A DNA stretch of 64,000 bases from positions 32,001 to 96,000 of the forward strand of contig JAPDJI010000017.1 of NCBI GenBank assembly GCA_029259155.1, read 5' to 3'. The position numbers and the translations under genes are program-made. Source of the DNA: Candidatus Methanomethylicia archaeon. Lineage in GTDB: Archaea > Thermoproteota > Methanomethylicia > Nezhaarchaeales > B40-G2. Numbering within the stretch: position 1 is the first letter of the stretch; every line of letters begins with the position of its first letter. Below, piece after piece: positions 7,199 through 43,688 of this stretch. A model generated the notes under the pieces. The model did not search any database. It was not told the origin of the DNA and saw nothing but the letters and a program-made list of their open reading frames with translations.

Positions 7199-8509
7199 AT
7201 GGTGCTCAGCTTGTGGGAAGGAAGGCTTTTCTCCTCTCAAGCCTTAACGGTACATGAAGGTGCCCGTGTCAAGCTCTACGGATGGGTACACAGCATAAGA
7301 GACCTAGGTAAAGTATGCTTCTTTCTGTTGAGGGACAAGGAAGGCATAATACAGGTGGTGGCATCAGCCTCAGCCCTTAGCCCTGCCGTCTTTAACGCTG
7401 TCAAGGAGCTGAAGAGAGAGTACGTGGTGGAGGTTGAAGGGATCGTAAGGCGCACTGAGAAGGCTCCTGGCGGGGTAGAGCTTCACTTAGAGAAGTTGAA
7501 GGTGTTGAACGAAGCCAATGTCCCTCCTCACCTCGAGCCTGATAGGAGGGTTAAGCTGGAACTCGATGTTAGGCTGGATGAAAGGATGCTCGACCTTAGG
7601 AGGCTGGAGAACCAAGCTCTATTCAGAATAGGCCACGTTGTATTAAGCTCAGCTAGGCGCTTCCTTGAAGAGCGAGGCTTCATAGAAGTTCATACACCTA
7701 AATTAATAGCAACCGCCACTGAGGGTGGAGCTGCACTTTTCCCGATAGCCTACTTTGACCGTGAAGCTTTCTTGGCTCAGAGCCCTCAATTATACAAGGA
7801 ACAACTCTCAGCGGTGTTCGAGAGGGTTTATGAAGTAGGCCCACTCTTTAGGGCTGAAGAATCGCACACTAATCGACACCTCTCAGAATACGTGGGCGTT
7901 GATGTTGAAGCAGCCTTTGCTGACGAAGAAGACGTTATGCAGGTATTAGAGGATATGGTGACCTTCACGGTCCGTGAAGTAGTAAGCAGATGCGGTCGGG
8001 AACTCCAACTTCTTGGGAGAAAACTCGAAGTACCTCCTACTCCTTATAGGAGGCTGACTTACTCAGAGGCTATAGATCTGCTTAGGGAGCGTGGGATGTC
8101 TATTGAGTGGGGGCACGACTTATCCACGGAGGCTGAACGTGTATTGGGAAGAATATTCAATGAGCCCTTCTTCATCGTTGATTGGCCTACTCATCTTAAG
8201 CCTTTCTATATTATGCCTAGGGAGGATGATCCTAAGCTTTCCTATAGCTTCGACTTAATGTACGGCTGGCTCGAGATAGCCTCCGGCGGGCGACGCATAC
8301 ACCGCAAAGACCAGTTAATAAAACGCCTAGAAGAACAAGGACTAAACCCAGAAAACTTCAAACACCACCTTAAATGCTACGACTACGGCATGCCACCCCA
8401 CGCAGGATGGGGACTAGGACTAGCAAGACTACTAATGATAATAACTGGGAAGGACGATATAAGGGAGGTAGTCCTATACCCAAGGGATCGATGGAGACTG
8501 ACGCCTTAG
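7199..8509 (+). CDS. aspS: Aspartyl-tRNA synthetase, archaeal (likely non-discriminating given gatCAB)
   Basis: N-terminal OB fold, LAQSPQLYK, FRAE and YGMPPHAGWGLG motifs. Confidence 0.95.
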   Translation: MVLSLWEGRLFSSQALTVHEGARVKLYGWVHSIRDLGKVCFFLLRDKEGIIQVVASASALSPAVFNAVKELKREYVVEVEGIVRRTEKAPGGVELHLEKLKVLNEANVPPHLEPDRRVKLELDVRLDERMLDLRRLENQALFRIGHVVLSSARRFLEERGFIEVHTPKLIATATEGGAALFPIAYFDREAFLAQSPQLYKEQLSAVFERVYEVGPLFRAEESHTNRHLSEYVGVDVEAAFADEEDVMQVLEDMVTFTVREVVSRCGRELQLLGRKLEVPPTPYRRLTYSEAIDLLRERGMSIEWGHDLSTEAERVLGRIFNEPFFIVDWPTHLKPFYIMPREDDPKLSYSFDLMYGWLEIASGGRRIHRKDQLIKRLEEQGLNPENFKHHLKCYDYGMPPHAGWGLGLARLLMIITGKDDIREVVLYPRDRWRLTP

Positions 8510-9756
8510 ACCGTGAGCTGGATAGACCTATCCTCTTGGTAGAGTATTTTGTCGGTGGAGGGCTTCCTAACCTAACTTCCTCCTTGATTCTTGAAGGTTA
8601 CGCTATGTTGAAGGCGGCAGCAGAGGCTCTTACCGAAGCTGGCTTCAAGTTGATAGTTGCGGTGGATAGAAGGGTTGAGCCTTTTCTTAAGCTTCCTAGG
8701 CTACGTAGGATCAAGGCGGGGCCAGGGGGGCTACTAAAGACACTAAAAAAGGAGGCTTCTGCTTCCTATGCCCTCCTTATAGCTCCTCCTATGGATGGAG
8801 CTCATGCTAACTTGACCTCCTTAATGGAGGAGCTGGGCATCGAGGTTCTAGGGCCCTCAACGAACAAGTTGATAAAGGTTCTCGATAAGGCGGAGCTCGC
8901 TCGCTCATTAAATGCCCTGGGCGTTAGGTATCCAAAAACCATTGAGCTCGACCCAATTATCGAAGAAAGTGTCCATGAAGCCGGAGAGAAGCTGGGTTAT
9001 CCGTTAGTTATTAAACCTGTGGATGGTGCAGGCTGTGAAGGCTTAATGATCGTAGGGTCTTCTCGCCAAATAAAGGAGGCTGTGAAGGAAGCAAAGACCT
9101 ATGCAAGGCGATACATTGCTCAGGAGATGGTTAAGGGAGTACATGCTAGCGTTAGCTTAATAGCTGATGGTAGGAGGGCTAAAGCTCTAGCTCTCAACGC
9201 GCAGCAACTGCTATGGAAAAAGCTACCTTCGCATCCAAGCTATGAAGGAGGGTATACCCCACTTATTCATCGTAGTTCAGACGAAGCTTTAAAGGAAGCC
9301 GAAAAGGTGGTAGAGTACTTCGGCCTTAAAGGGTACGTGGGGATAGACCTAGTTCTATCGGATGAAGGTCCCTTCATAGTGGAAGTCAACCCCAGGCTAA
9401 CCACTTCTTTCATAGCTCTAACTTCGACCATTTCACCCTCACACCTCGGAAGGTGTTTAGTTAACGTCACCCTAGGGCGCCTTGACCCCTCACAAGCACC
9501 CCTCATGACGAGACATGTATGTGCTTTACGTAAGCTTAAAACTCCTATTGACCTAACCTTAACACCGCTCCTTATAGAACGCCTTTCTAGCACTCCAGGG
9601 GTTTATGTTACCACGCCTCTCACGGGGAGAGTTCCTAGAGGTGAGAGTATAGCTCTGCTTAAGGCAGAGGCATCTAATCTACGCTCAGCTGTAGCTCGCC
9701 TAGGAGGCATTACCCGCAAGGTTGAGAGTATAATTAAGGCCAAGGAATTTAGTTGA
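8491..9756 (+). CDS. mfnD: ATP-grasp ligase, tyramine--L-glutamate ligase (methanofuran biosynthesis)
   Basis: EYFVGGG..EGYAML N-terminus, KPVDGAGC, GYVGIDL and EVNPRLTTS; mfnB/E/F nearby. Start moved to ATG 8491 to avoid a long aspS overlap. Confidence 0.75.
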   Translation: METDALDRELDRPILLVEYFVGGGLPNLTSSLILEGYAMLKAAAEALTEAGFKLIVAVDRRVEPFLKLPRLRRIKAGPGGLLKTLKKEASASYALLIAPPMDGAHANLTSLMEELGIEVLGPSTNKLIKVLDKAELARSLNALGVRYPKTIELDPIIEESVHEAGEKLGYPLVIKPVDGAGCEGLMIVGSSRQIKEAVKEAKTYARRYIAQEMVKGVHASVSLIADGRRAKALALNAQQLLWKKLPSHPSYEGGYTPLIHRSSDEALKEAEKVVEYFGLKGYVGIDLVLSDEGPFIVEVNPRLTTSFIALTSTISPSHLGRCLVNVTLGRLDPSQAPLMTRHVCALRKLKTPIDLTLTPLLIERLSSTPGVYVTTPLTGRVPRGESIALLKAEASNLRSAVARLGGITRKVESIIKAKEFS

Positions 9757-9886
9757 GATTTTTCTCATCAGTAATCCTGAAGGCTACTTTTAAAGGGTTA
9801 TAGAAGGAGGAGTCGGTCCATTTTTTAGCTAGCATTTGCTCCAGCTTTCTTAATCTAAGTAGTTATGTTATCGTATCCACCTGGGC

Positions 9887-10615
9887 TTAACCATGACATA
9901 CCAGGCCTCTTCTTCTAGCTTCTTCCACGTCTATCAATCCGGTATGTAGCGCTGTGGCTATGAGCACTCCGGTTATACCTAGATCTCTAAGCCTCTGTGA
10001 ATCCTCCAAGCTACGTACTCCTCCTACCAGTAGACTGAGCTTCGACCTCTCCTTGATCCTTTTTATTAACTCCAAATCGACACCCTTAAGCGTACCTACA
10101 TTATCTAAGCTAAGCAGGATAGCCTCGCGTACCCCAGCCTTCTCAGCTTCAAGGGCAGCTTCAAGAGGATCGCTTACTTCCTCAATTTTAGAGAGTAGCT
10201 TACCTCCATAAAGGTCCAAGCTTAAGACCACATTGCTAGCTCCTACCTCCCTAACTATATCACGTAGGGCTTTGAAGCTGGTTAAGGTCTCTGTTCCAAC
10301 AACCACTACTACCCCTGTCTCCATAAGCCTCCTCGCCGTTGCAGCGTTATTGACCCCGGCATCTATCATCGCCCTCAGCCCAAGCTCGCTAAGCTCGGTG
10401 TAAAGCTTCAGGTTGAGTCTTGTTCCAGCGATGGCATCGAGGTCAGCTACGTAGAGCTCCTTCACCTTCAGGGCTTCTTTATACGCTTTAGCTACCTCTA
10501 AAGGGTTAGTGGATGAACATATGAGGCTTTTCAGAGGTTTGTAAAGTTCACGTTTACCTTGGACTGCATGTACAGCTATACCTCCCTTGATATCCAATAC
10601 AGGTATGAGCCTCAA
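9887..10615 (-). CDS. HisA/HisF-related TIM-barrel protein of the type found with methanofuran/H4MPT genes
   Basis: IPVLDIKGGIAVHAVQG.RE.YKP, LYVADLDAI, DAGV, GTET and VGT..G motifs. Confidence 0.85.
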   Translation of the reverse strand: MRLIPVLDIKGGIAVHAVQGKRELYKPLKSLICSSTNPLEVAKAYKEALKVKELYVADLDAIAGTRLNLKLYTELSELGLRAMIDAGVNNAATARRLMETGVVVVVGTETLTSFKALRDIVREVGASNVVLSLDLYGGKLLSKIEEVSDPLEAALEAEKAGVREAILLSLDNVGTLKGVDLELIKRIKERSKLSLLVGGVRSLEDSQRLRDLGITGVLIATALHTGLIDVEEARRRGLVCHG

Positions 10616-12069
10616 ACTTCACTCATCCCCTCCAGCAGTTTTCTTCCTTTTTCCGTAAGGTCGTAGAGCCTCCTCCACCTTCCCTTAACCACCTCTACCC
10701 CAGCCTCTCTAATGAATCCCAACTCTTTTAACTCCTCAAGGTGTTGATAGAGGCTAGGCAACTTCAGGGATATACCACGCTCCTTTTCAAGCAGCGCTCT
10801 AAGTCCATAGCCATGTAGCGTACCATTCGAGAGTATCTTCAATATCTCTAGCTTAGCTTTCCCGAGCTTTGAATGAGGTTTAATGCTTACTATGAAGCTT
10901 CCTACCTTAAGTTTGTCTTCAGCTAAGCTAAGGACAGCTTTAGGATCCTTCAATCCTTCCCCAGTAATTATACATACTATTTTCTCCCCACGATCTATCT
11001 CTCCTTCACTGAGGAGTTTCAGAAGCCCTGCCACTGTAGAGCTAGCGGCAGGCTCCGAAAAGACCCCTTCAAGCCTAGCTAAGAGTTTCATGGCTTCCAA
11101 GGCTTCCTGATCTGATACAGCTATAGCGGCTCCACGGCTTTCTTTCATGGCTTTTAAGGCTTCATTCCCGTAGGGAGGCTCCTTCATACCTATGTCAAGG
11201 ATACCTGTTTCAGCCTTATCGATAGGCTCCACTTCGCTCTTTCCTTCCTTGAACGATTTAACTATCGGGGCACATCCTTCAGGTTGAACTCCTATTATTC
11301 TCGTCTTAGCTCTGTCTATGATCCCTAAGACCTCCATCTCTTTCAAGGCTTTCCAAGCCATAGATAAGTGCCCTCCACTTCCCATTGGGATGACTAGAAC
11401 GTCGGGGGCGTCCCAGTTAAGCTGGTCACATATCTCCCAGGCCGTGATCTTCACGCCTTCAAGAAAGAAGGGGTCTATGGAGGAGGCTAAATACCCTGTA
11501 TTCTCCATCCTAGCCTTCATGTCAGCCTCCTCTAAGTCTTTCGTTAACCTTAAGTCCGCACCGTAAGCCGTCATCTGGTAGAGTTTACCTAGATCAAGTT
11601 TCGAAGGAGCGTAGACTATGCATTTAATCCCGGCCTTAGCGGCGTAGGCAGCTAGAGAGGCTCCTAAGTTACCGGCGGAAGCACATGTTAAGGTTTCAGC
11701 TTTAAGCCAAAGCGCTCTTGTAACAAGCACTGAAGCGCCGCGGTCTAGGAAGGAACCTGTGGGATTAGTGGTTTCATCCTTCACGTAAAGCTCCTTAACC
11801 CTTAGTCTTTCAGCTAGTTTGAAGCTTCTATGTAGATATGTCCCCCCTTCACCTAGCGACACTATCCTCCAACTTGGAAGTACAGGTAATACTTCATAGT
11901 ACCTCCATAAGTTGAACCCTCTCGAACGTAATGTGTCGCGACTTACTTTACCCCTAACCTCTTCATAGTCATAAACTACGTTTAACTTTCCCCTACATAT
12001 AGGGCACGTAATGAATGGCTGCTCTAGAGCATAGTTCTTTAGGCATGTGGGACACTTAAGGCTAGGCAC
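10612..12069 (-). CDS. Threonine-synthase-like (fold type II) protein lacking the catalytic Lys, fused to a C-terminal PadR-type wHTH; putative transcription regulator
   Basis: Zn ribbon, LGEGGT, NPTGSFLDRG (Leu codon CTA at the Lys position) and TGEGLKDP, then ILKILSNGTLHGYGL..SLYQHLEEL..G..RRLYDLTEKG. Confidence 0.85.
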   Translation of the reverse strand: MPSLKCPTCLKNYALEQPFITCPICRGKLNVVYDYEEVRGKVSRDTLRSRGFNLWRYYEVLPVLPSWRIVSLGEGGTYLHRSFKLAERLRVKELYVKDETTNPTGSFLDRGASVLVTRALWLKAETLTCASAGNLGASLAAYAAKAGIKCIVYAPSKLDLGKLYQMTAYGADLRLTKDLEEADMKARMENTGYLASSIDPFFLEGVKITAWEICDQLNWDAPDVLVIPMGSGGHLSMAWKALKEMEVLGIIDRAKTRIIGVQPEGCAPIVKSFKEGKSEVEPIDKAETGILDIGMKEPPYGNEALKAMKESRGAAIAVSDQEALEAMKLLARLEGVFSEPAASSTVAGLLKLLSEGEIDRGEKIVCIITGEGLKDPKAVLSLAEDKLKVGSFIVSIKPHSKLGKAKLEILKILSNGTLHGYGLRALLEKERGISLKLPSLYQHLEELKELGFIREAGVEVVKGRWRRLYDLTEKGRKLLEGMSEV

Positions 12070-12070
12070 A

Positions 12071-12098
12071 AGCCTATATATAGGCTAAAACTTAAATA
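12071..12098. promoter_or_regulatory. Perfect 16-bp palindrome AGCCTATATATAGGCT beside a shared TATA element of a divergent promoter
   Basis: Palindrome at 12071-12086; CTTAAATA at 12091-12098 lies about 22-25 nt from both start codons (12069 on -, 12123 on +). Confidence 0.6.
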
Positions 12099-12122
12099 TG
12101 TTTCTCGGGCCTACATCGCAAT

Positions 12123-12866
12123 ATGTCTAAGGCCGAGCAGATCAGCTTAACAGGGCTTTTTACCGCTCTCGTATGTGCCTTCACCATCTCCTTTCAGCTC
12201 TACATTCCGGCTACTCGAGGCTACTTCAACATAGGTGAGGTCATGGTCTATACCGCCGCTCTCATAGGAGGGCCGTTGATAGGCGGCTTTGCTGGTGGAG
12301 TAGGTTCAATGTTAGCTGACGTGTTAACAGGCTATGCCCACTATGCTCCAGCTACCTTAGTAATCAAAGGAGTGGAAGGTTGCCTTGTAGGCTGGCTATG
12401 TAGGGTCAAGCTTTTTAAGGATCCTAAAGCTTGGAGGGCGCTTTCATTAAGCTCAGCCTTTTTCGTAGGTTTCTTGTTGTTAGCCATAGCTCCTTATTAT
12501 GTTGGTGAAGCTGAGGCTACACTAGGTCCTTCTGCAATAACCTTGGCTGGCTATGAGCTAACTCTACCATCATTAACCTTGAGCTTTGCACTTCCGAGTT
12601 TTATATGGCCTATCTTGGCCGTTGCAGCTTTCACCGGTATAGCTTACGTAGGGCTTAAGGCTTCTCCTGAGCTTGGATGGACGGTGCTCTCTGTGGCGGC
12701 AGGGGGGATATTGATGGTAATAGGCTATTACCTATATGAGCAGCTCTTTATGGGTGTAGCTGCGCTGGCTGAGGTACCCTTTAACACAGCTCAGTTCCTC
12801 ATAGGCCTTCTAGTTTCAGTTCCCCTATACAAGAGTCTTAAGAGAGCCTTACCAGGTTTGTTTTAA
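12123..12866 (+). CDS. ECF transporter S component (PdxU2/HmpT-like)
   Basis: Polytopic membrane protein with IPATRGYFNIGE..GGVGSMLADVLTGY.HYAPATLVIKGVEG. Confidence 0.85.
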   Translation: MSKAEQISLTGLFTALVCAFTISFQLYIPATRGYFNIGEVMVYTAALIGGPLIGGFAGGVGSMLADVLTGYAHYAPATLVIKGVEGCLVGWLCRVKLFKDPKAWRALSLSSAFFVGFLLLAIAPYYVGEAEATLGPSAITLAGYELTLPSLTLSFALPSFIWPILAVAAFTGIAYVGLKASPELGWTVLSVAAGGILMVIGYYLYEQLFMGVAALAEVPFNTAQFLIGLLVSVPLYKSLKRALPGLF

Positions 12867-12901
12867 GGAAAATCCTTAAATAAACCTTCATATCCTGCCC
12901 A

Positions 12902-12986
12902 GATAGCGGCCGGTTTTGGGATAAGCGCAGCCATCGTTCTGCGCCTCCTTTTAACTGGCCAGCTACGTAAAGGAGGTAAAGGAAGA
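12902..12986 (+). promoter_or_regulatory. Structured 5' leader of the TRAM gene
   Basis: TATA-like TTAAATAA at 12876; stems 12904-12915/12953-12965 and 12925-12930/12939-12944; anti-SD at 12944-12951. Confidence 0.55.
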
Positions 12987-13202
12987 ATGTATGGTAGAAG
13001 GGAACCCCGCTACGCGCGCAAGCCCGTTAGCTTAGGCGGCGAGTACGACGTGGAGATAACAGAGGTTAGCAGAAGAGGCGACGGTTTAGCTAGAGTGCAA
13101 GGCTTTGTGGTCTTCGTGCCTGGAGCTAGACCTGGACAGCGAATAAAGGTTAGGGTTACTAAGATGGGCAACCGGTACGCGGTAGCGGAGATGGTTCGGT
13201 GA
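12987..13202 (+). CDS. Stand-alone TRAM-domain RNA-binding protein
   Basis: KPV..G.EYDVEI....RRGDGLARVQGFVVFVPGA..G with a strong SD (AGGAGGT). Confidence 0.92.
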   Translation: MYGRREPRYARKPVSLGGEYDVEITEVSRRGDGLARVQGFVVFVPGARPGQRIKVRVTKMGNRYAVAEMVR

Positions 13203-13302
13203 AGTGGGGTTAAGGCATAAGCTTTCCATGTAACCTTAAAAGCCTAGTCTTGTTTTTTATGCATGACCTCCTTAAGCCCTAGGGCCTAGGAGGTTTCAGC
13301 TA

Positions 13303-14016
13303 TTGAAGCTCCTCATCAGCGTAGTGGATGCCCAGGAGGCTAAGGAAGCCTTCCTAGGGGGTGCTGACATCGTAGATGTTAAAAGGCCTTCTGAAGGCTC
13401 CTTGGGGGCTTGCCCCCCAAACATCATAAGGAGTGTTAGGGAGGCTCTTCCTCAAAAGGTTGAAGTTAGCGCAGCAGTAGGTGATGTACCAGACCTACCT
13501 GGCACGGTTTCGTTGGCAGCATTAGGTGCCGCGGTAAGTGGTGTGGATTACGTCAAGGTTGGTGTTTATGGACCTAAATCTCTTGAGAGAGCCGTGGTAT
13601 TGCTTAAGGAGGTTAAGGAGGCTGTTAAGTCTTACGATAGCTCGATCAAAGTGGTGGCAGCGAGCTATGCTGACTACGGGAGGGCAGGGTGCCTTGAACC
13701 AAACATGGTGTTGGAGGCAGCCCGTAAAGCGGAGGTGGATGTATGGATGATCGACACTAAGGTGAAGGATGGTTCCCCTCTTCTAAGCTTCTTATCACCT
13801 AGCAGCTTAATATCGCTGATCGAAAGGGCTCACGGCTACGGTATGATAGCTGCAGTGGCTGGGTCCTTGAAGCTTGACGATCTTGAAGCTATTGGTTCAT
13901 TGGGAGCTGATGTAGTTGGTTTTCGAGGGGCAGCGTGTGGAGGAGATAGAGTAAAGGGTAGGGTTAGGAGAGAGTTTGTGGAGGAGTTAAAGAGGAGGCT
14001 TAGCTTAGTAAGGTAG
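13303..14016 (+). CDS. mfnB: (5-formylfuran-3-yl)methyl phosphate synthase
   Basis: LLISV, GADIVDVK.PSEGSLGA, DYVKVG, MIDTKVKDG and GFRGAACGGDR. Confidence 0.92.
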   Translation: MKLLISVVDAQEAKEAFLGGADIVDVKRPSEGSLGACPPNIIRSVREALPQKVEVSAAVGDVPDLPGTVSLAALGAAVSGVDYVKVGVYGPKSLERAVVLLKEVKEAVKSYDSSIKVVAASYADYGRAGCLEPNMVLEAARKAEVDVWMIDTKVKDGSPLLSFLSPSSLISLIERAHGYGMIAAVAGSLKLDDLEAIGSLGADVVGFRGAACGGDRVKGRVRREFVEELKRRLSLVR

Positions 14017-14832
14017 GTGACTTTGGAGTTTTCGAGTAAGGCCAAGAAGCCCAAGAGTTTTAAGGACCATGAACTCTTTTCCCAACTAAAGATACCTCCA
14101 GGGGTTTTCTTCGTAATTAGGTGTGATGGTAGATCGTTCAAGGAGGTCTGCAGTAAGGTGGGGTTTAAGAAGCCTTTCGATAAAGCCTTTGCCGAACTGA
14201 TGGTTTCCTCGAGCAAAGCGGTGTTTGAGGGAGGTCTCAACCCTCTTTTCACCTTCATTCATTCCGATGAAGCTAGCTTCCTCTTTAACGGCGAATCTAC
14301 CTTTAAGCGTAGAGTAGAGAAGCTGCTATCCATCGTCCCTAGCCTTATGAGCAGTAAGGCTTCCCTAGGCCTTCACTCAATTTTCAACTATAATGGCCCT
14401 GTTTCCTTCGACGCTAGAGTGGTTCTGCTCGATAAAGCTGAGATAGCCGATTACTTTGCTTGGAGGCAGATGGAGGCTTGGAGAAACCACATCAATTCCT
14501 ATGCTTACTACACTCTACTCTCTAAGGGTTTAACTCCACGTGAAGCTTCACTTAAGCTAAAGGGGTTGAAGGCTCCTCAACTACATGAGCTGGTATTTAA
14601 AGAAGCTGGCGTAAACCTGGCTACCACCCCGCCTTGGCAGAGGAGAGGAATAGCCCTCATATGGGAGGAAGAAGTTAAGGAGGGCTTCGACCCGGTTAAA
14701 GGGGCTAAGGTAAAGGCTTTAAGACTACAGTTGAAGGAGGACTGGAGCCCTCCTATCTTTGCCAGTTCTGAGGGAAGGGGCTACATCGAGAGGTCTATGG
14801 AAGCTAGGCTTAGGGGAGTTACTCGGCCGTAA
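14017..14832 (+). CDS. thg1: tRNA(His) guanylyltransferase Thg1-family protein
   Basis: IRCDGRSF, SDEASF, FDAR and YFAWRQ.EAWRNH; no internal stop codon. Confidence 0.92.
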   Translation: MTLEFSSKAKKPKSFKDHELFSQLKIPPGVFFVIRCDGRSFKEVCSKVGFKKPFDKAFAELMVSSSKAVFEGGLNPLFTFIHSDEASFLFNGESTFKRRVEKLLSIVPSLMSSKASLGLHSIFNYNGPVSFDARVVLLDKAEIADYFAWRQMEAWRNHINSYAYYTLLSKGLTPREASLKLKGLKAPQLHELVFKEAGVNLATTPPWQRRGIALIWEEEVKEGFDPVKGAKVKALRLQLKEDWSPPIFASSEGRGYIERSMEARLRGVTRP

Positions 14833-14836
14833 TGGG

Positions 14837-15481
14837 TCACCGAGGATCAATCCTTGTACAAGGTACTTTCTCGCCTCGAAGCAGCTTAGTTAGATAGTTT
14901 TCTGTAAGCCCATTAACTAGGTAGCAGGTTATACCAGCTCTCAATATTATCTTAGGCGCTACGCTATCTATGCATGTAGGCTTTGAAGACTGAAGCAGTC
15001 TTGAAGCCTCGATGCTCTCGATGAGGCGCCCCTCATCATTCAATAAACCATCCACGTCCTTGACCAACACGAGTAAGCCTACACCCAGCCTTTCAGCTAA
15101 CCTCGCGGCTACGGCATCTCCCGTGGTTTCCCATGAAGCCGGTAGGGCATCATCGTCCTTCACCTCCCTGAACGGGAGGAGGATGCATGATTCTTCTTTC
15201 ACTTCGCCGAGTTTCTCCTTCACCTTCATGTTCGGCATCAAGTCTGCCAGCAACATGCCGTACTGGTCCATGGACATTAAGGCCATGATGTGAGAGGCTT
15301 TAGATGATAGCTTTAGTTCCTCATCTACCTTCCTCACCACGTCAGCGAAAACCCCTCCACCAGGTACTATTACGAACTTTAACCTACGTGAGGCCTCTTC
15401 AAGTTCGCGACAAAATCTCTTGAGGCCTCGAAGGTCTCTTAATAGGCTTCCTCCCACTTTCACTACGGCGTCTAAACCCAT
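14837..15481 (-). CDS. mfnE: Amino-acid-kinase family protein, [5-(aminomethyl)furan-3-yl]methyl phosphate kinase
   Basis: VVKVGGSL, VPGGGVFADVVR, SWETTGD and KDVDG; overlaps mfnF. Confidence 0.82.
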   Translation of the reverse strand: MGLDAVVKVGGSLLRDLRGLKRFCRELEEASRRLKFVIVPGGGVFADVVRKVDEELKLSSKASHIMALMSMDQYGMLLADLMPNMKVKEKLGEVKEESCILLPFREVKDDDALPASWETTGDAVAARLAERLGVGLLVLVKDVDGLLNDEGRLIESIEASRLLQSSKPTCIDSVAPKIILRAGITCYLVNGLTENYLTKLLRGEKVPCTRIDPR

Positions 15482-16548
15482 CCTTCCACTACCTCTAGGT
15501 GCTTAATATCCACCTCAATGCCGGTTGCCATGAGTCCGGCTCCCAGCGCGGGAACCATTCTAGAGGCAGCCCCTATTACTTCGCTTAAACTAAACACTCT
15601 CTCCACACCTATCTTCCTTAGAGCTGGCTCAGCAAGGAACTTTGCCCCTATGCCGGCGGTGTAAGCTGGTGGAGTGATGTTTTTCTCAGTTCTGAGCCTG
15701 CTGTATACTTGGAGTAAGCCTTCAGCAACTGCTTCAAGCTGTCTATGGTAAATGAAGCTAGCCATACTTATGACTTCTTCCTCGCTGATGAGCTCAAGGT
15801 CGGCGCAGACCACCCTAGCCAGCCTAGCGAGAGCTTCCCTCCTCGTAGCTTCTCTCCCGTCAGCAGTGTCCACCGTATATTCATGTTCTCTTATGTGACC
15901 TAAAATAAGATGTACATCACCTGAAGTAGCAAAGAGCTCAGAAGACACTCGAATTAATCCCCCTCTCAAGGGGACTTTGTCTACTATGGCCGCTACGTTA
16001 GTTCTTAAGGCACCTGTATACACCAGCTCTCCGCACATAAGCTTCTCAAGATCGTTAAGCCCTTTGACTGCCAGCTCACCTTCGATGACGGGGACGATGC
16101 TCGTGGTCGTGCTACCTACGTCTACTACTACGCAGGTTTTTTCAAGCTTAGAAGCCACCCAACCAGTCGCCGCCCAGTTAGCGGCAGCTACCTCTAAAGG
16201 ATGTTTCTTGGCATCTTCAACGCTTACAAGTTTCCCTTTAACGCTTACAACCTTCACCTCGGTGTCCTTAAAACATCTTTCCACAGTGTTGAGTACGTGA
16301 TGTACTCCTTCACGCTTACACCAATACACGTCTGAGAGCTCAGCAGTCATCGTAAGCCCTACAGCTTTAAGCTCACCAGCTTTAGAGGCGAGCTCATTTA
16401 AGGCCTCCATAAGCTTCTCTTTCCCCACTTTCCATAGGGGGAGGTACAGGCTCCGCGTATATGCCTTCGCTATTCCTTTACTTAGCTCTATGAGCACTGC
16501 TTTGAGATTAGCTCCTCCCACGTCTAGGCCTAGGTAGTTCACGTTCAC
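15472..16548 (-). CDS. mfnF: Hydantoinase A-like methanofuran biosynthesis enzyme
   Basis: GLDVGGANLK, TMTAELSD, AAANWAA, DVGSTTT, ELVYTGALRT and TADG. Confidence 0.88.
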   Translation of the reverse strand: MNVNYLGLDVGGANLKAVLIELSKGIAKAYTRSLYLPLWKVGKEKLMEALNELASKAGELKAVGLTMTAELSDVYWCKREGVHHVLNTVERCFKDTEVKVVSVKGKLVSVEDAKKHPLEVAAANWAATGWVASKLEKTCVVVDVGSTTTSIVPVIEGELAVKGLNDLEKLMCGELVYTGALRTNVAAIVDKVPLRGGLIRVSSELFATSGDVHLILGHIREHEYTVDTADGREATRREALARLARVVCADLELISEEEVISMASFIYHRQLEAVAEGLLQVYSRLRTEKNITPPAYTAGIGAKFLAEPALRKIGVERVFSLSEVIGAASRMVPALGAGLMATGIEVDIKHLEVVEGWV

Positions 16549-32608: not shown

Positions 32609-33087
32609 TTCTTAGCCTCCTCTATGGGTAAGATGAGGAGGCCGCCCTCCTTCTCCACGGCCTCCTTGACCTTAGCCAAGGTACTTTCCAAGGCGCTGAG
32701 AGGCCCTTCAAACGTGATCTTTAGAGCTCCTCCACTCTCTGGCCTAGTTTCTCCTTCAAAGCCAACTACCTTCACTTCCTTGTCAAACTCAGATAAGATT
32801 GAGGTATCAGTTTTTCCTACCGCAACCACTGTCACCCTAGCTTTTTCGACGGCTTCCTCGAACTTCATTATCATTACATCCTTGGCCTCAAGCAGCTCCT
32901 TGACCCTGAGCGGTGATGAGGTAGAAGGCAGCTCAACAACTAGGTCCACCGGAACTACACCTTCCACCACCTTCTCCCGTTCATGTACTATGGATACCAC
33001 GTTTCCACCTTCTCCCGCTAAGACTTCAAGTACCTTTAATAGCTCCCCTGGCCTATCAGGTAGCATTACGGTGAGCTCTAACCGCAA
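32605..33087 (-). CDS. ACT-domain protein, probable allosteric partner of homoserine dehydrogenase
   Basis: LPDRPGELLKVL...GGNVVSIVHER; translationally coupled to hom. Confidence 0.85.
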   Translation of the reverse strand: MRLELTVMLPDRPGELLKVLEVLAGEGGNVVSIVHEREKVVEGVVPVDLVVELPSTSSPLRVKELLEAKDVMIMKFEEAVEKARVTVVAVGKTDTSILSEFDKEVKVVGFEGETRPESGGALKITFEGPLSALESTLAKVKEAVEKEGGLLILPIEEAKK

Positions 33088-34310
33088 CCTAAAACCCTCC
33101 CAACAACCTCCTCTACCCTACTTGATTCAACCTCGAAGGGTTCTTCATAGAACCTCACCACTATATCTGGGTCTTTAAGTCCATGGCCCGTGGCTACGCA
33201 TACTATAGTCTCGTCTCGACTAATGACACCTTGTTCAAGCATCTTGACTAACCCAGCTATGGAAGCTGCGCTTGCAGGTTCAACGAAGAGGCCTTCAAGC
33301 CTAGCTAACTCTCGCTGAGCATCGACGATTTCTTCGTCGCTCACCACAGTTACCCCTCCCTTTGACTCTACTACAGCAGCTTTAGCTTTAGACCAGTTAA
33401 CTGGGGCCCCTATCCTGATGGCGGAGGCAACGGTCTCAGGCTTATCAAGAGGGGTTAACTTATCTAGGTTCTGCAGTATCATGTGGGCGAAGGGGGCAGC
33501 GCCTTCGGCCTGAACCCCCATCATTTTAGGGGTCTCACGTGTAATTCCTAGTTCACGTAGCTCCTTAAACCCCTTCCATATAGCACTTATGTTACCTGCA
33601 TTGCCCACCGGCAGCACTATACGGTCTGGAACGCGTCGCCCTAACTGCTCGCATACCTCGTAAGCCAGAGTTTTCTGTCCTTCAAGTCTAAAGGGGTTAA
33701 CTGAATTTAGAAGATAAAGCCCTCTTTTTTCGCAAAGCTTCCTAACTTCCCTCAATGCGTCGTCGAAGCTCCCCTTTATCGCTAGCACCTTAGCTCCATG
33801 AGCTACTGCCTGCACAAGCTTTCCTCTCGCTATCTTACCGCTGGGCACTATTACGAGGCAAGGAAGCCCAGCTTTTGCTGAGTAGGCAGCTAATGAAGCG
33901 GAAGTATTACCAGTAGAAGCGCAGGCTGTGGCTTTAGCGCCAAGCTCCACTGCCTTTGTAACTCCAATGGTCATCCCCCTATCCTTGAAGGACCCAGTGG
34001 GGTTCTCTCCTTCATTCTTTACATAGAGCTCCTTAACTCCTAGCTTAGAAGCAAGCCGAGAACACCTATGCAGCCCAGTACCTCCCTCTCCAAGCGAGAC
34101 CTTTCTTGAAGAATCGGCGGGAAGTAGTTCCTGATACTTCCAGACCGAGAGAGGCCTCCTACTCCAGATCTCCAATAGCTGAGAGGCCTCAAGCCGAGAG
34201 TAGTCATAGGTTACATCGAGCAGCCCGCCACAAGCCTCACATGTATACACTATGGCATTGGGGGCATATTCCCGTCCACACTCAATACACTTAAGAGACT
34301 CTACGAACAT
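33078..34310 (-). CDS. thrC: Threonine synthase (intact PLP lysine)
   Basis: NPTGSFKDRG, ASTGNTSAS, PVGNAGN and TGHGLKDP. Confidence 0.95.
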   Translation of the reverse strand: MFVESLKCIECGREYAPNAIVYTCEACGGLLDVTYDYSRLEASQLLEIWSRRPLSVWKYQELLPADSSRKVSLGEGGTGLHRCSRLASKLGVKELYVKNEGENPTGSFKDRGMTIGVTKAVELGAKATACASTGNTSASLAAYSAKAGLPCLVIVPSGKIARGKLVQAVAHGAKVLAIKGSFDDALREVRKLCEKRGLYLLNSVNPFRLEGQKTLAYEVCEQLGRRVPDRIVLPVGNAGNISAIWKGFKELRELGITRETPKMMGVQAEGAAPFAHMILQNLDKLTPLDKPETVASAIRIGAPVNWSKAKAAVVESKGGVTVVSDEEIVDAQRELARLEGLFVEPASAASIAGLVKMLEQGVISRDETIVCVATGHGLKDPDIVVRFYEEPFEVESSRVEEVVGRVLGCG

Positions 34311-43235: not shown

Positions 43236-43688
43236 CTTTTTTTCCCGGTGAAGGCGGTGGGATAACCCTATGGGGTTGAGGGCCCCTACAAAATAAATAT
43301 TTCGTATGGAATGAAAGGGGTGTCGAAGGTGTTAACCAGGTTCTTTTTGTGGTCTTTATGTCATCACCTCTTGCTTGGCTCAAAATTTAATAGTTCTTTT
43401 TAATTTCTTGTTCATGAATATTTTCATCAAGCTTATCCTTTTTTAACTCCTCAAGTCTTCTCCCCTAGCTAGGTGTGTGTCTAAGCTGAGTTTCTTACTC
43501 GCAGGATTGATGAGCTAAGCCTATGCATAGGTTTATAGGATGCCTTAACGCTCTTCGTCGAGCTCCTCCATAATGGAGGAGGCGAAGGATTATCTGGGTT
43601 TAAGGGAGAGCTGGGCTCCAGGAGGGCTTTAAAGGTTTTTTTGTTTACCTTATACGTGTAATGCCATTTAGGTGATGGGTGAGGTTTT

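Follow-up and report, generated by a model that had tools for sequence, protein, structure and literature searches.

The window analysed here, a stretch of 64,000 nucleotides from a Candidatus Methanomethylicia archaeon (assembly GCA_029259155.1, contig JAPDJI010000017.1, positions 32,001 to 96,000), contains a gene whose product joins the fold of threonine synthase (ThrC) to a winged helix-turn-helix (wHTH) of the PadR type. Leucine occupies the place of the lysine that forms the Schiff base with pyridoxal 5'-phosphate (PLP), and we describe the gene as a putative regulator that responds to vitamin B6. It lies head-to-head with a gene for the substrate-binding S-component of an energy-coupling factor (ECF) transporter, and a perfect palindrome is located in the spacer. 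The genome as a whole is ~1.55 Mb in size and 94% complete by marker genes. The features of the locus, together with the second threonine synthase gene of the window, are as follows:

10612-12069, minus strand: open reading frame (ORF) of the regulator, GTG start, 485 aa plus stop; ThrC-fold domain and PadR-type wHTH
11995-12054, minus strand: N-terminal Cys4 zinc ribbon (C6, C9, C22, C25), from cysteine conservation in the alignment
10960-11862, minus strand: PALP (fold-type II) domain, putative sensor, residues 70-370; Pfam PF00291, E 1.2e-72
11746-11748, minus strand: codon CTA (Leu108), where ThrC has the lysine of the PLP Schiff base; motif NPTGSFLDRG
10870-10956, minus strand: linker, residues 372-400, low confidence (predicted local distance difference test, pLDDT, below 50 in the AlphaFold2 model)
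10615-10869, minus strand: C-terminal PadR-type wHTH, residues 401-485; Pfam PF03551 over residues 409-480
12071-12086, unstranded: 16-bp perfect palindrome AGCCTATATATAGGCT, candidate operator; core CCTATATATAGG at 12073-12084
12091-12099, unstranded: TATA-like element ATATTTAAG (minus strand), putative promoter element
12123-12866, plus strand: ECF-type S-component, 247 aa, candidate B6-vitamer importer, divergent from the regulator; PF07155, E 7e-30
33078-34310, minus strand: genuine threonine synthase paralogue, 410 aa, with NPTGSFKDRG and PVGNAGN

An initial annotation, made from the sequence alone, had read a full ThrC scaffold and about 80 C-terminal PadR-like residues into this protein, and both readings hold. 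Beside the PF00291 match, the top Foldseek matches of the structure model are the ThrC structures 6cgq and 2zsj, with a template modelling (TM) score of 0.86 by target, root-mean-square deviations of 2.1-2.6 Å and 39-40% identity; the PadR match reaches 41 bits against a cut-off of 27 (E 2e-10). The exchange of lysine for leucine through the codon CTA was likewise confirmed at Leu108, as were the altered phosphate or glycine loop, PMGSGGH versus PVGNAGN in the paralogue, and the intact thrC with its lysine present. The regulator and this paralogue share 46% identity. The paralogue shares an operon with genes for homoserine dehydrogenase and an ACT-domain protein, and branches within the unfused ThrC group in a tree of the enzyme domain; this linkage to the threonine pathway is not seen for the regulator, which adjoins the S-component. 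In contigs from four of four other public sequencing runs, belonging to four studies, the Leu108 codon and the upstream palindrome are unchanged, one of the runs (X6) having thin cover over the palindrome. Because none of the four runs differs at 11746-11748, the leucine codon is not an assembly slip. The same contigs differ at five other positions within the ORF—two synonymous and three nonsynonymous changes, too few to judge selection.

The absence of the lysine extends over the whole family. The best 120 matches to the protein in a large protein collection, all with both PF03551 and PF00291, come from Thermoprotei, Bathyarchaeia, Nitrososphaerales and several Asgard groups, and the named ones are called 'threonine synthase'. 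We aligned the query with 119 of these matches and the ThrC of the window. The lysine column of the 120 fused rows holds isoleucine in 79, leucine in 19, valine in 14, methionine in four, threonine in two, and serine and asparagine in one each; the sole lysine is that of the true ThrC. A second set of 120 rows, from a search seeded by a Nitrosopumilales member, has isoleucine in 59, methionine in 40, leucine in 15, phenylalanine in three, threonine and valine in one each, and a single lysine. The initial annotation had named two observations relevant to its claim: a lysine in reads or close homologues, and the co-segregation of lysine loss with the wHTH. As to the former, the same leucine codon recurs in all four runs and the lysine is missing in 239 of the 240 homologue rows of both sets together. 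Co-segregation was observed in a set of 80 loci, one genome per species, of which 35 encode fused proteins and 45 unfused ThrC. Fused loci carry leucine or isoleucine (10 each), arginine (seven), methionine (four), lysine (two), asparagine or phenylalanine (one each), so that the lysine is lost in 33 of 35, and it is kept in 45 of 45 unfused loci. The loss is real, as first noticed; the initial annotation, which counted two substitutions from a lysine codon, missed that the trait is old and family-wide, and no recent two-base change in this gene. None of the named matches of the homologue and locus searches belongs to a cultured organism.

The fused loci split into two groups. Clade A, which includes the window, has the motif NPTGSF[ILMV]DRG, and the smaller clade B (about 462 aa) has NPTNS[FY][RK]DR[AS] and comprises Bathyarchaeia and one Odinarchaeota record. 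In clade B the position is arginine in seven members and lysine in two Bathyarchaeia loci (L032 and L034, NPTNSFKDRS). Lysine is also kept in the fused Nitrososphaeria-type protein P0194 (NPTGSIKDRG). By their motifs, these three proteins and the seven arginine loci of clade B are candidates for intermediate or bifunctional states. In a quick maximum-likelihood phylogeny calculated from the enzyme domain alone (LG+G4, 82 rows, unrooted), the unfused enzymes (46 rows), clade A (27) and clade B (9) each form one side of a branch, with SH-aLRT (Shimodaira-Hasegawa-like approximate likelihood ratio test) values of 96, 100 and 99, the fused proteins together making up one branch, and clade B adjoins the unfused enzymes. 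This tree would fit a single fusion event after which the lysine was lost. Two rows stand out by their labels: the fused locus L035, from a record named 'bacterium isolate', and the unfused ThrC of L051, labelled 'Dormiibacterota', are archaeal-type genes that fall among archaeal rows in the tree, and are probably mis-binned or mislabelled contigs of metagenome-assembled genomes (MAGs). The Cys4 zinc ribbon, not mentioned in the initial annotation, is a feature shared with the enzymes: 86-90% of the clade-A rows retain its cysteines, as do 98% of the unfused ThrC rows and the true ThrC of the window.

To see what else has changed in the enzyme domain, we took the 147 alignment positions at which 46 unfused ThrC rows show conservation of 85% or more and compared them with 146 clade-A rows. 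Clade A retains 80 of these positions fully and 42 in part; at the other 25 the ThrC residue has been replaced, in most cases by one that is itself conserved. Kept residues include N134, S138, G230, G233, T369 and G370, each at 86% or more in clade A, as well as K162, Q165 and E339; among the kept set are, presumably, those that hold the PLP ring and phosphate in ThrC and other fold-type-II structures. The replaced set includes residues that we take to hold O-phosphohomoserine. On the substrate side of ThrC we count, by assumption, the GNT loop, the Arg of NPxRxEGQK that binds the substrate phosphate (the R202 position) and the Asn of GNAGN. Substrate-side residues not retained in clade A are T135 (to L, 93%), R202 (to F, 73%), N234 (to H, 70%) and Q206 (to E). 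Other replacements are those of K108, G100 (to T), A159 (to D, 95%), A237 (to M, 90%) and A292 (to D, 92%). None of the replacements in clade A introduces a new conserved lysine.

The database name of the family follows from curated models. The regulator scores above the cut-offs of TIGR00260 (213 versus 167.1) and PRK08197 (306.2 versus 303), which explains the name 'threonine synthase', and below that of PRK05638 (292.5 versus 421). PRK05638 (NCBIfam NF004170, an equivalog named 'threonine synthase') aligns residues 4-482 of the query to profile positions 2-441 of 442. Since the model spans the wHTH, regulators appear to be included under the curated name, and PRK05638 seems to describe regulators, not enzymes. 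Its cut-off is reached in none of 14 control genomes. The last 80 positions of the profile also match a stand-alone 119-aa frame at G000:C7:6925-7182.

These scores and the 80 kept positions would also be expected of a protein that is still an enzyme, with threonine synthase or another PLP activity by a non-canonical mechanism, and doubles as a regulator. RbkR sets a precedent as an archaeal enzyme-wHTH fusion with its activity kept (PMC5397151), and the lysine of L032, L034 and P0194 leaves room for active relatives. However, nearly every clade-A member has Ile, Leu, Val or Met for the lysine and none has a compensating conserved lysine, the substrate-side positions are replaced, and the same genome carries a canonical ThrC in an operon with hom. 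All 12 regulator-positive genomes of the host class likewise have at least one unfused ThrC-like match. We therefore regard a catalytic role of the protein as very improbable.

The neighbouring genes point to vitamin B6. The spacer between the regulator and the S-component measures 53 nt in the window, and an S-like gene is adjacent in 26 of the 35 fused loci, or 27 of 36 with the window. In three of the nine exceptions the regulator sits at the edge of its contig; of the remaining 33 assessable loci, 27 have the S-component, three have pdxS and three have neither. The pairing with the S-component spans Thermoproteota, Nitrososphaeria, Bathyarchaeia and Asgard, the gene lying upstream and divergent in clade A and directly downstream in clade B. 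No S-component is adjacent to any of the 45 unfused thrC genes; five related Bathyarchaeia loci have one at a distance of at least 1.7 kb. In L017, L018 and L033 the divergent neighbour of the regulator is pdxS. It is followed by pdxT in L033 and in L018, where the two genes match PF01680 (E 7e-102) and PF01174 (E 1e-52) and the spacer to the regulator is 61 nt.

The only PDB sequence match of the window's S-component at E≤10 is 4hzu_S (E 5e-13). Chain S of 4HZU is HmpT, or PdxU2, first linked to hydroxymethylpyrimidine (HMP) and with pyridoxamine as its preferred substrate (PMC4860826). PdxU and PdxU2/HmpT are members of PF07155 and, with P5PA, are described as the only B6 transporters known, in a field said to have a major gap (PMC9997740). 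ESM Atlas returned only generic 'ECF S component' names for the protein. One EcfT/CbiQ gene is found on contig C8 of the same genome, the EcfA ATPases being outside that search. A second PF07155 S-component is encoded at C19:503-967. Riboflavin was considered as the substrate and rejected: RibU gave no PDB match at E≤10, 12 S-negative genomes of the survey described below also lack 6,7-dimethyl-8-ribityllumazine (DMRL) synthase, and the genome has the second PF07155 gene.

Several loci contain a further gene, for a protein of about 336 aa of the AIR-synthase family. It follows the S-component in L030, L054, L065 and L076 and precedes it in L035 and L019, occurring in clade-B loci and two Nitrososphaeria loci, and scores below the cut-offs for HypE, ThiL and SelD. 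The orthologue in the archaeon's own genome lies outside the window (G000:C5:74121-75125) and shows 40-44% identity. A link to thiamine through this neighbour was rejected, all five genomes checked having a separate ThiL above cut-off; that it is a missing B6 salvage enzyme is speculation.

The vitamin status of the genomes agrees with the identity of the neighbour. The archaeon's own genome has no PdxS and no PdxJ, and only sub-threshold matches to SNO. It also has no match to DMRL synthase, an enzyme of riboflavin synthesis; ThiC is present, and a ThiD-ThiN fusion is the only Phos_pyr_kin protein. Its gene content suggests several vitamin auxotrophies in this hydrothermal or sediment archaeon. 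We surveyed 46 genomes of the host class, each at least 80% complete, and counted S-component orthologues at E≤1e-38. Four genomes have both the S-component and PdxS, 26 the S-component only, 12 PdxS only and four neither. The corresponding counts for the controls are 11, 19, 10 and 6 with ThiC and 2, 28, 4 and 12 with DMRL synthase (RibH). Judged by gene content, the S-component and PdxS are phyletically complementary (Fisher p 5e-5, overstated since the genomes are related). The alternation is also seen inside families: in the host family, two genera have the regulator and the S-component without PdxS, and a third genus (two genomes) has PdxS only. Of the 46 genomes, 12 encode the regulator, for which a match had to extend at least to residue 478; 11 of these 12 lack PdxS, the exception being G001. 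Among 15 regulator-bearing genomes of other phyla, PdxS occurs in none of the 11 with an adjacent S-component and in three of the four without.

The same regulator, acting at the same site on the same targets, might respond to another signal: a PLP-amino-acid aldimine, for instance of threonine or O-phosphohomoserine, or an HMP- or HMP-phosphate-type pyrimidine or thiamine precursor resembling pyridoxine. A PLP pocket without its lysine holds external aldimines tightly, which would suit the former. The pyrimidine is favoured by the first name of the nearest solved S-component, HmpT (PMC4860826), by the confinement of the regulator to ThiC-positive genomes of the class (12 of 12), and by the AIR-synthase-family gene, with its weak likeness to ThiL, after the S-component in several loci. 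Set against these are the partner genes, with pdxS in three loci and pdxT in two of them, and the complementarity of the S-component to PdxS and not to ThiC. HMP would not need to be imported in the archaeon's own genome, which has ThiC and the ThiD-ThiN fusion, and the AIR-synthase-family neighbour is not ThiL. As for the amino-acid ligands, Phe occupies the position of the substrate-phosphate Arg in 73% of clade A, which speaks against O-phosphohomoserine, and a threonine-type signal finds no thr genes nearby, the thrC operon lying 21 kb off without the palindrome. Overall we consider a signal of this other kind unlikely. The initial annotation had left the ligand between a B6 vitamer, a PLP-amino-acid adduct and phosphohomoserine or threonine; the S-component and pdxS partners favour B6 vitamers, and for the threonine side no thr-gene link was seen.

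A candidate site of action is found in the spacer. The palindrome ends 3 nt before the GTG of the regulator, and the centre of the TATA-like element is 26 nt from this GTG and 28 nt from the ATG of the S-component. The inner 14-mer of the palindrome has a single perfect copy in the 1.55-Mb genome. No wider regulon emerges in this genome, all nine copies of the 14-mer with two mismatches lying inside ORFs and the reversed control pattern giving none; a scan of the window found only two further sites, with three mismatches, neither at thrC. The consensus across loci consists of ATATATAAG, followed after about 6 nt by (A/G)CCTATATATAGG(C). With up to two mismatches allowed, 21 of the 24 clade-A regulators that could be assessed have the core immediately upstream, under Thermoproteota, Nitrososphaerota, Bathyarchaeia, Thermoplasmata and Asgard labels, and one of 44 unfused thrC genes has it upstream. 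It also lies between the regulator and pdxS in L017, L018 and L033. The order in L033—regulator, palindrome, TATA-like element, about 25 nt, ATG of pdxS—is the layout of the window with its S-component. In the genome of L057 (G063), the regulator and pdxS are on separate contigs, and the pdxS promoter has the same layout with an operator-like site at three mismatches. The core was not found before PdxS of G001 or before the S genes of four regulator-free genomes.

The conservation of the locus might also arise without any regulatory function, if the protein were a decaying or structural paralogue, the palindrome a shared core promoter and the adjacency that of a co-transferred cassette. The centre of the palindrome is TATA-like, its distance to the start of pdxS in L018 is about 34 nt by hand count, a plausible position for a TATA box, and a whole cassette could move between phyla by transfer. 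Yet the ORF is intact and the family is conserved over hundreds of sequences at 40-60% identity, with the wHTH residues Y421, Y441, R466 and Y469 kept in 119-120 of 120 homologue rows. The GC flanks of the palindrome are conserved too, the site is rare (once in 1.55 Mb and at 1 of 44 control promoters), and the partner switches between S-component and pdxS in step with the B6 status of the genome. We find such an explanation the least probable of all, slightly below retained catalysis.

Two further repeats were noted. At 43518-43533 of the window, AGCCTATGCATAGGTT contains the perfect 12-bp palindrome CCTATGCATAGG, a core variant shared with one of the sites before the regulator of L017. It is located 283 nt upstream of an AdoMet decarboxylase gene, within ~450 nt (43236-43688) that contain no convincing ORF; a search of the window against Rfam at the gathering threshold gave no match, here or elsewhere. 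Locus L107 (G009:C1, upstream of the regulator at 177982), on a sub-branch with NPTGSFMDRG, lies beside a shorter S-like gene and lacks the CCTATATATAGG core. It has another long inverted repeat before the gene, TTAGACTTAAATA ... TATTTAAGTCTAA, with arms about 30 nt apart, which from its sequence and position may be a diverged operator.

The AlphaFold2 model of the regulator (mean pLDDT 87.7, predicted TM score 0.76) shows a confident ThrC fold, a linker and a wHTH; a PDB search found no structure of the fused family. The wHTH is modelled at pLDDT 81-91 with helices at residues 404-413, 420-431 and 437-449, strands at 453-461 and 464-471 and a helix at 473-484. This H-H-H-E-E-H topology corresponds to three helices, a two-strand wing and one terminal helix. 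Y421, Y441 and R466 can be set, by motif position and not by alignment, against Tyr20, Tyr42 and Lys67 of Bacillus subtilis PadR, which are DNA-contact residues in that protein (PMC5728393). Prediction with two copies gave an ipSAE (interface score from predicted aligned errors) of 0.82, against 0.00 for the best of three controls, at a mark reached by 20 of 30 solved pairs and one of 23 single chains. At least 68% of the contacts are common to the runs, with a partner pLDDT of at least 84. The predicted interface involves the enzyme fold only (residues 51-52, 72-84, 98-104, 141-147, 161-170, 327-337 and 371-383) and none of the wHTH. This score could reflect likeness to solved ThrC dimers, in which case it may not count as evidence for the regulator itself. 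PadR dimers bind palindromes (PMC5728393), and a ThrC-like dimer with two tethered PadR wHTHs, as modelled, fits a palindromic site.

From gene content, conservation and models taken together, the protein is probably a non-catalytic, dimeric, vitamin-B6-responsive one-component regulator, an archaeal counterpart of PdxR that has been mis-annotated as threonine synthase. Its ThrC-fold domain would have kept the cofactor pocket and lost the lysine that fixes PLP. With the lysine lost and the pocket kept, vitamer binding would be reversible, so that a free B6 vitamer, most likely PLP or pyridoxamine 5'-phosphate (PMP), would serve as a signal and not as a prosthetic group. The enzyme-fold domains would pair as a ThrC-like dimer and hold two PadR-type wHTHs on flexible linkers, and the two wHTHs would bind the palindrome between the TATA-like element and the start of the regulator, beside the divergent promoter. 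Occupancy by the ligand would alter DNA binding and thereby set the transcription of the regulator and of the neighbouring B6 gene. As to the direction of control, we propose repression when B6 is plentiful: the occupied form would bind the palindrome and shut both the regulator's own promoter and the gene for B6 uptake or synthesis. Competition with TBP and TFB would be one common way in which archaeal genes are repressed. The neighbouring gene would be the HmpT/PdxU2-like S-component in genomes without PLP synthase, as here, and pdxS, with pdxT, in PLP makers.

Several observations weigh against this proposal. The identity of the ligand is deduced from neighbours and phyletic patterns. The S-component is a candidate B6 importer by likeness; among the HmpT substrate contacts, a hand count on the alignment finds Glu41 retained, Tyr in place of Trp76 and Lys in place of His84 in the window's protein, later residues not being reliably aligned. 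Three of the 33 assessable loci (L021, L024 and L057) have neither partner gene, and G001 carries a clade-B regulator, the S-component and PdxS together. The surveyed genomes are MAGs, for which the absence of PdxS is not proof, completeness is not given for the 15 genomes of other phyla, and kinship between genomes means that they are not independent samples. Within the class the regulator is confined to ThiC-positive genomes and absent from all 25 ThiC-negative ones; this co-occurrence is probably one of phylogeny, most ThiC-negative genomes being of one family. On the side of the DNA, the palindrome is TA-rich and may overlap, act as, or only be the TATA box. It is missing from three of 24 clade-A loci, its core is found in none of the nine clade-B loci, where no operator could be recognised, and it was not found before the distant S orthologues of G009, G008, G001 and G006. 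Since the archaeon's own genome has no second site, the regulon would be tiny.

The proposed regulator would belong to a known kind, the enzyme-derived one-component vitamin regulators. In PdxR and other MocR proteins of bacteria, too, a sensor domain derived from a PLP enzyme is combined with a wHTH. MocR regulators keep the PLP lysine, and divergent pdxR-pdxST layouts, mirrored by L017, L018 and L033, are found in bacteria. The arrangement differs: in MocR a fold-type-I aminotransferase domain is C-terminal and a GntR-type wHTH N-terminal, whereas here a fold-type-II domain precedes a C-terminal PadR-type wHTH, and the present family is archaeal and has lost the lysine that the bacterial one retains. 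The Pfam scan of the regulator gave PALP and PadR, with no GntR or aminotransferase family among the matches. ThiR, the archaeal thiamine regulator, joins a DNA-binding domain to a thiamine-phosphate-synthase (ThiN) domain that is inactive, and it differs in both fold and vitamin. In the CymR-CysK pair of B. subtilis a fold-type-II PLP enzyme is a co-regulator, but CysK is an active enzyme working in trans with an Rrf2-type repressor, and the domain described here is fused and lysine-less. With ThrC the protein shares the fold, the zinc ribbon and most scaffold residues; it differs in the missing Schiff-base lysine, the replaced substrate-side residues and the added wHTH. A single wHTH with one C-terminal helix is also typical of PadR subfamily 2 (LmrR type). 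There, however, the dimer forms through the PadR helix, and here it is predicted through the enzyme fold, with no confident wHTH contacts in the model; the effector site would be the ThrC pocket in place of an inter-subunit PadR pocket.

RbkR comes closest in design. It consists of a riboflavin kinase domain and a wHTH, has palindromic operators of 16-20 bp and is autoregulated; its targets are biosynthesis genes in prototrophs and, in auxotrophs, the ECF-type ribU (PMC5397151). The two have in common that they are archaeal, pair an enzyme domain with a wHTH, and are associated with a palindrome and an uptake or synthesis target of a vitamin. In RbkR, unlike here, the kinase is active, the wHTH is N-terminal and the operators vary by lineage, whereas the present palindrome is nearly the same across phyla. 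The regulons of PdxR include pdxST, pdxK and the transporter gene pdxU, and the same source states that MocR is 'not present in Archaea' (PMC5320631). The initial description of the protein as an independent fold-type-II analogue of MocR and PdxR is a fair one. By analogy, the regulator appears functionally closest to PdxR and in design closest to RbkR, and is a member of neither. Full-text searches of the open literature, with subscription journals largely outside the scope, turned up no description of a fused ThrC/PALP-PadR protein or of an archaeal regulator of pdxS or B6, and the main text of a survey of archaeal fusions mentions cysH-thrC as the only thrC fusion (PMC11237513). The suggestion of a candidate new class of sensor regulator is supported computationally, though not as a rarity of one genome, the class being a large family stored in databases as 'threonine synthase'.

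Around the locus, the window contains the following additional genes:

9887-10615, minus strand: HisA/HisF-related gene; TIGR00734 155.8 bits, below the cut-off of 179.85
8374-9756: MfnD-like ATP-grasp gene
13303-14016: MfnB, 4-(hydroxymethyl)-2-furancarboxaldehyde phosphate (4-HFC-P) synthase gene
14837-15481: amino-acid-kinase fold gene
15472-16548: hydantoinase_A fold gene

The start of the HisA/HisF-related gene overlaps the regulator's stop by 4 nt, and the two are probably co-transcribed here. It is not a conserved partner: in the ORF map of the closest locus (L001), the regulator is not directly followed by a gene on its own strand. Cofactor-type genes surround the regulator in the window (8374-16548), with Thg1 and a TRAM protein encoded among them, and we take this cluster to resemble gene sets for methanofuran and methanopterin biosynthesis.

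To our knowledge, no mechanism of B6 control has been described in Archaea. There is about an even chance that the family is this long-missing regulator, a transcription factor that would be the first to derive from a fold-type-II PLP enzyme, with one ancient circuit in TACK, Thermoplasmatota and Asgard that governs an uptake gene in auxotrophs and pdxS with pdxT in prototrophs. The family offers a testable regulator, a defined 16-bp candidate operator and a candidate archaeal B6 importer together. The names 'threonine synthase' and 'PLP-dependent enzyme' probably conceal regulators in hundreds of cases, and such mislabels distort the metabolic reconstruction of uncultured archaea, Asgard included. 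The complementarity of S-component and PdxS provides a simple marker of B6 auxotrophy in MAGs. If the proposal is true, a pseudoenzyme was recruited as a sensor by one key loss, that of the Schiff-base lysine, and the circuit would mark an archaeal B6-importer family and perhaps, beside it, a new salvage enzyme of the AIR-synthase type.

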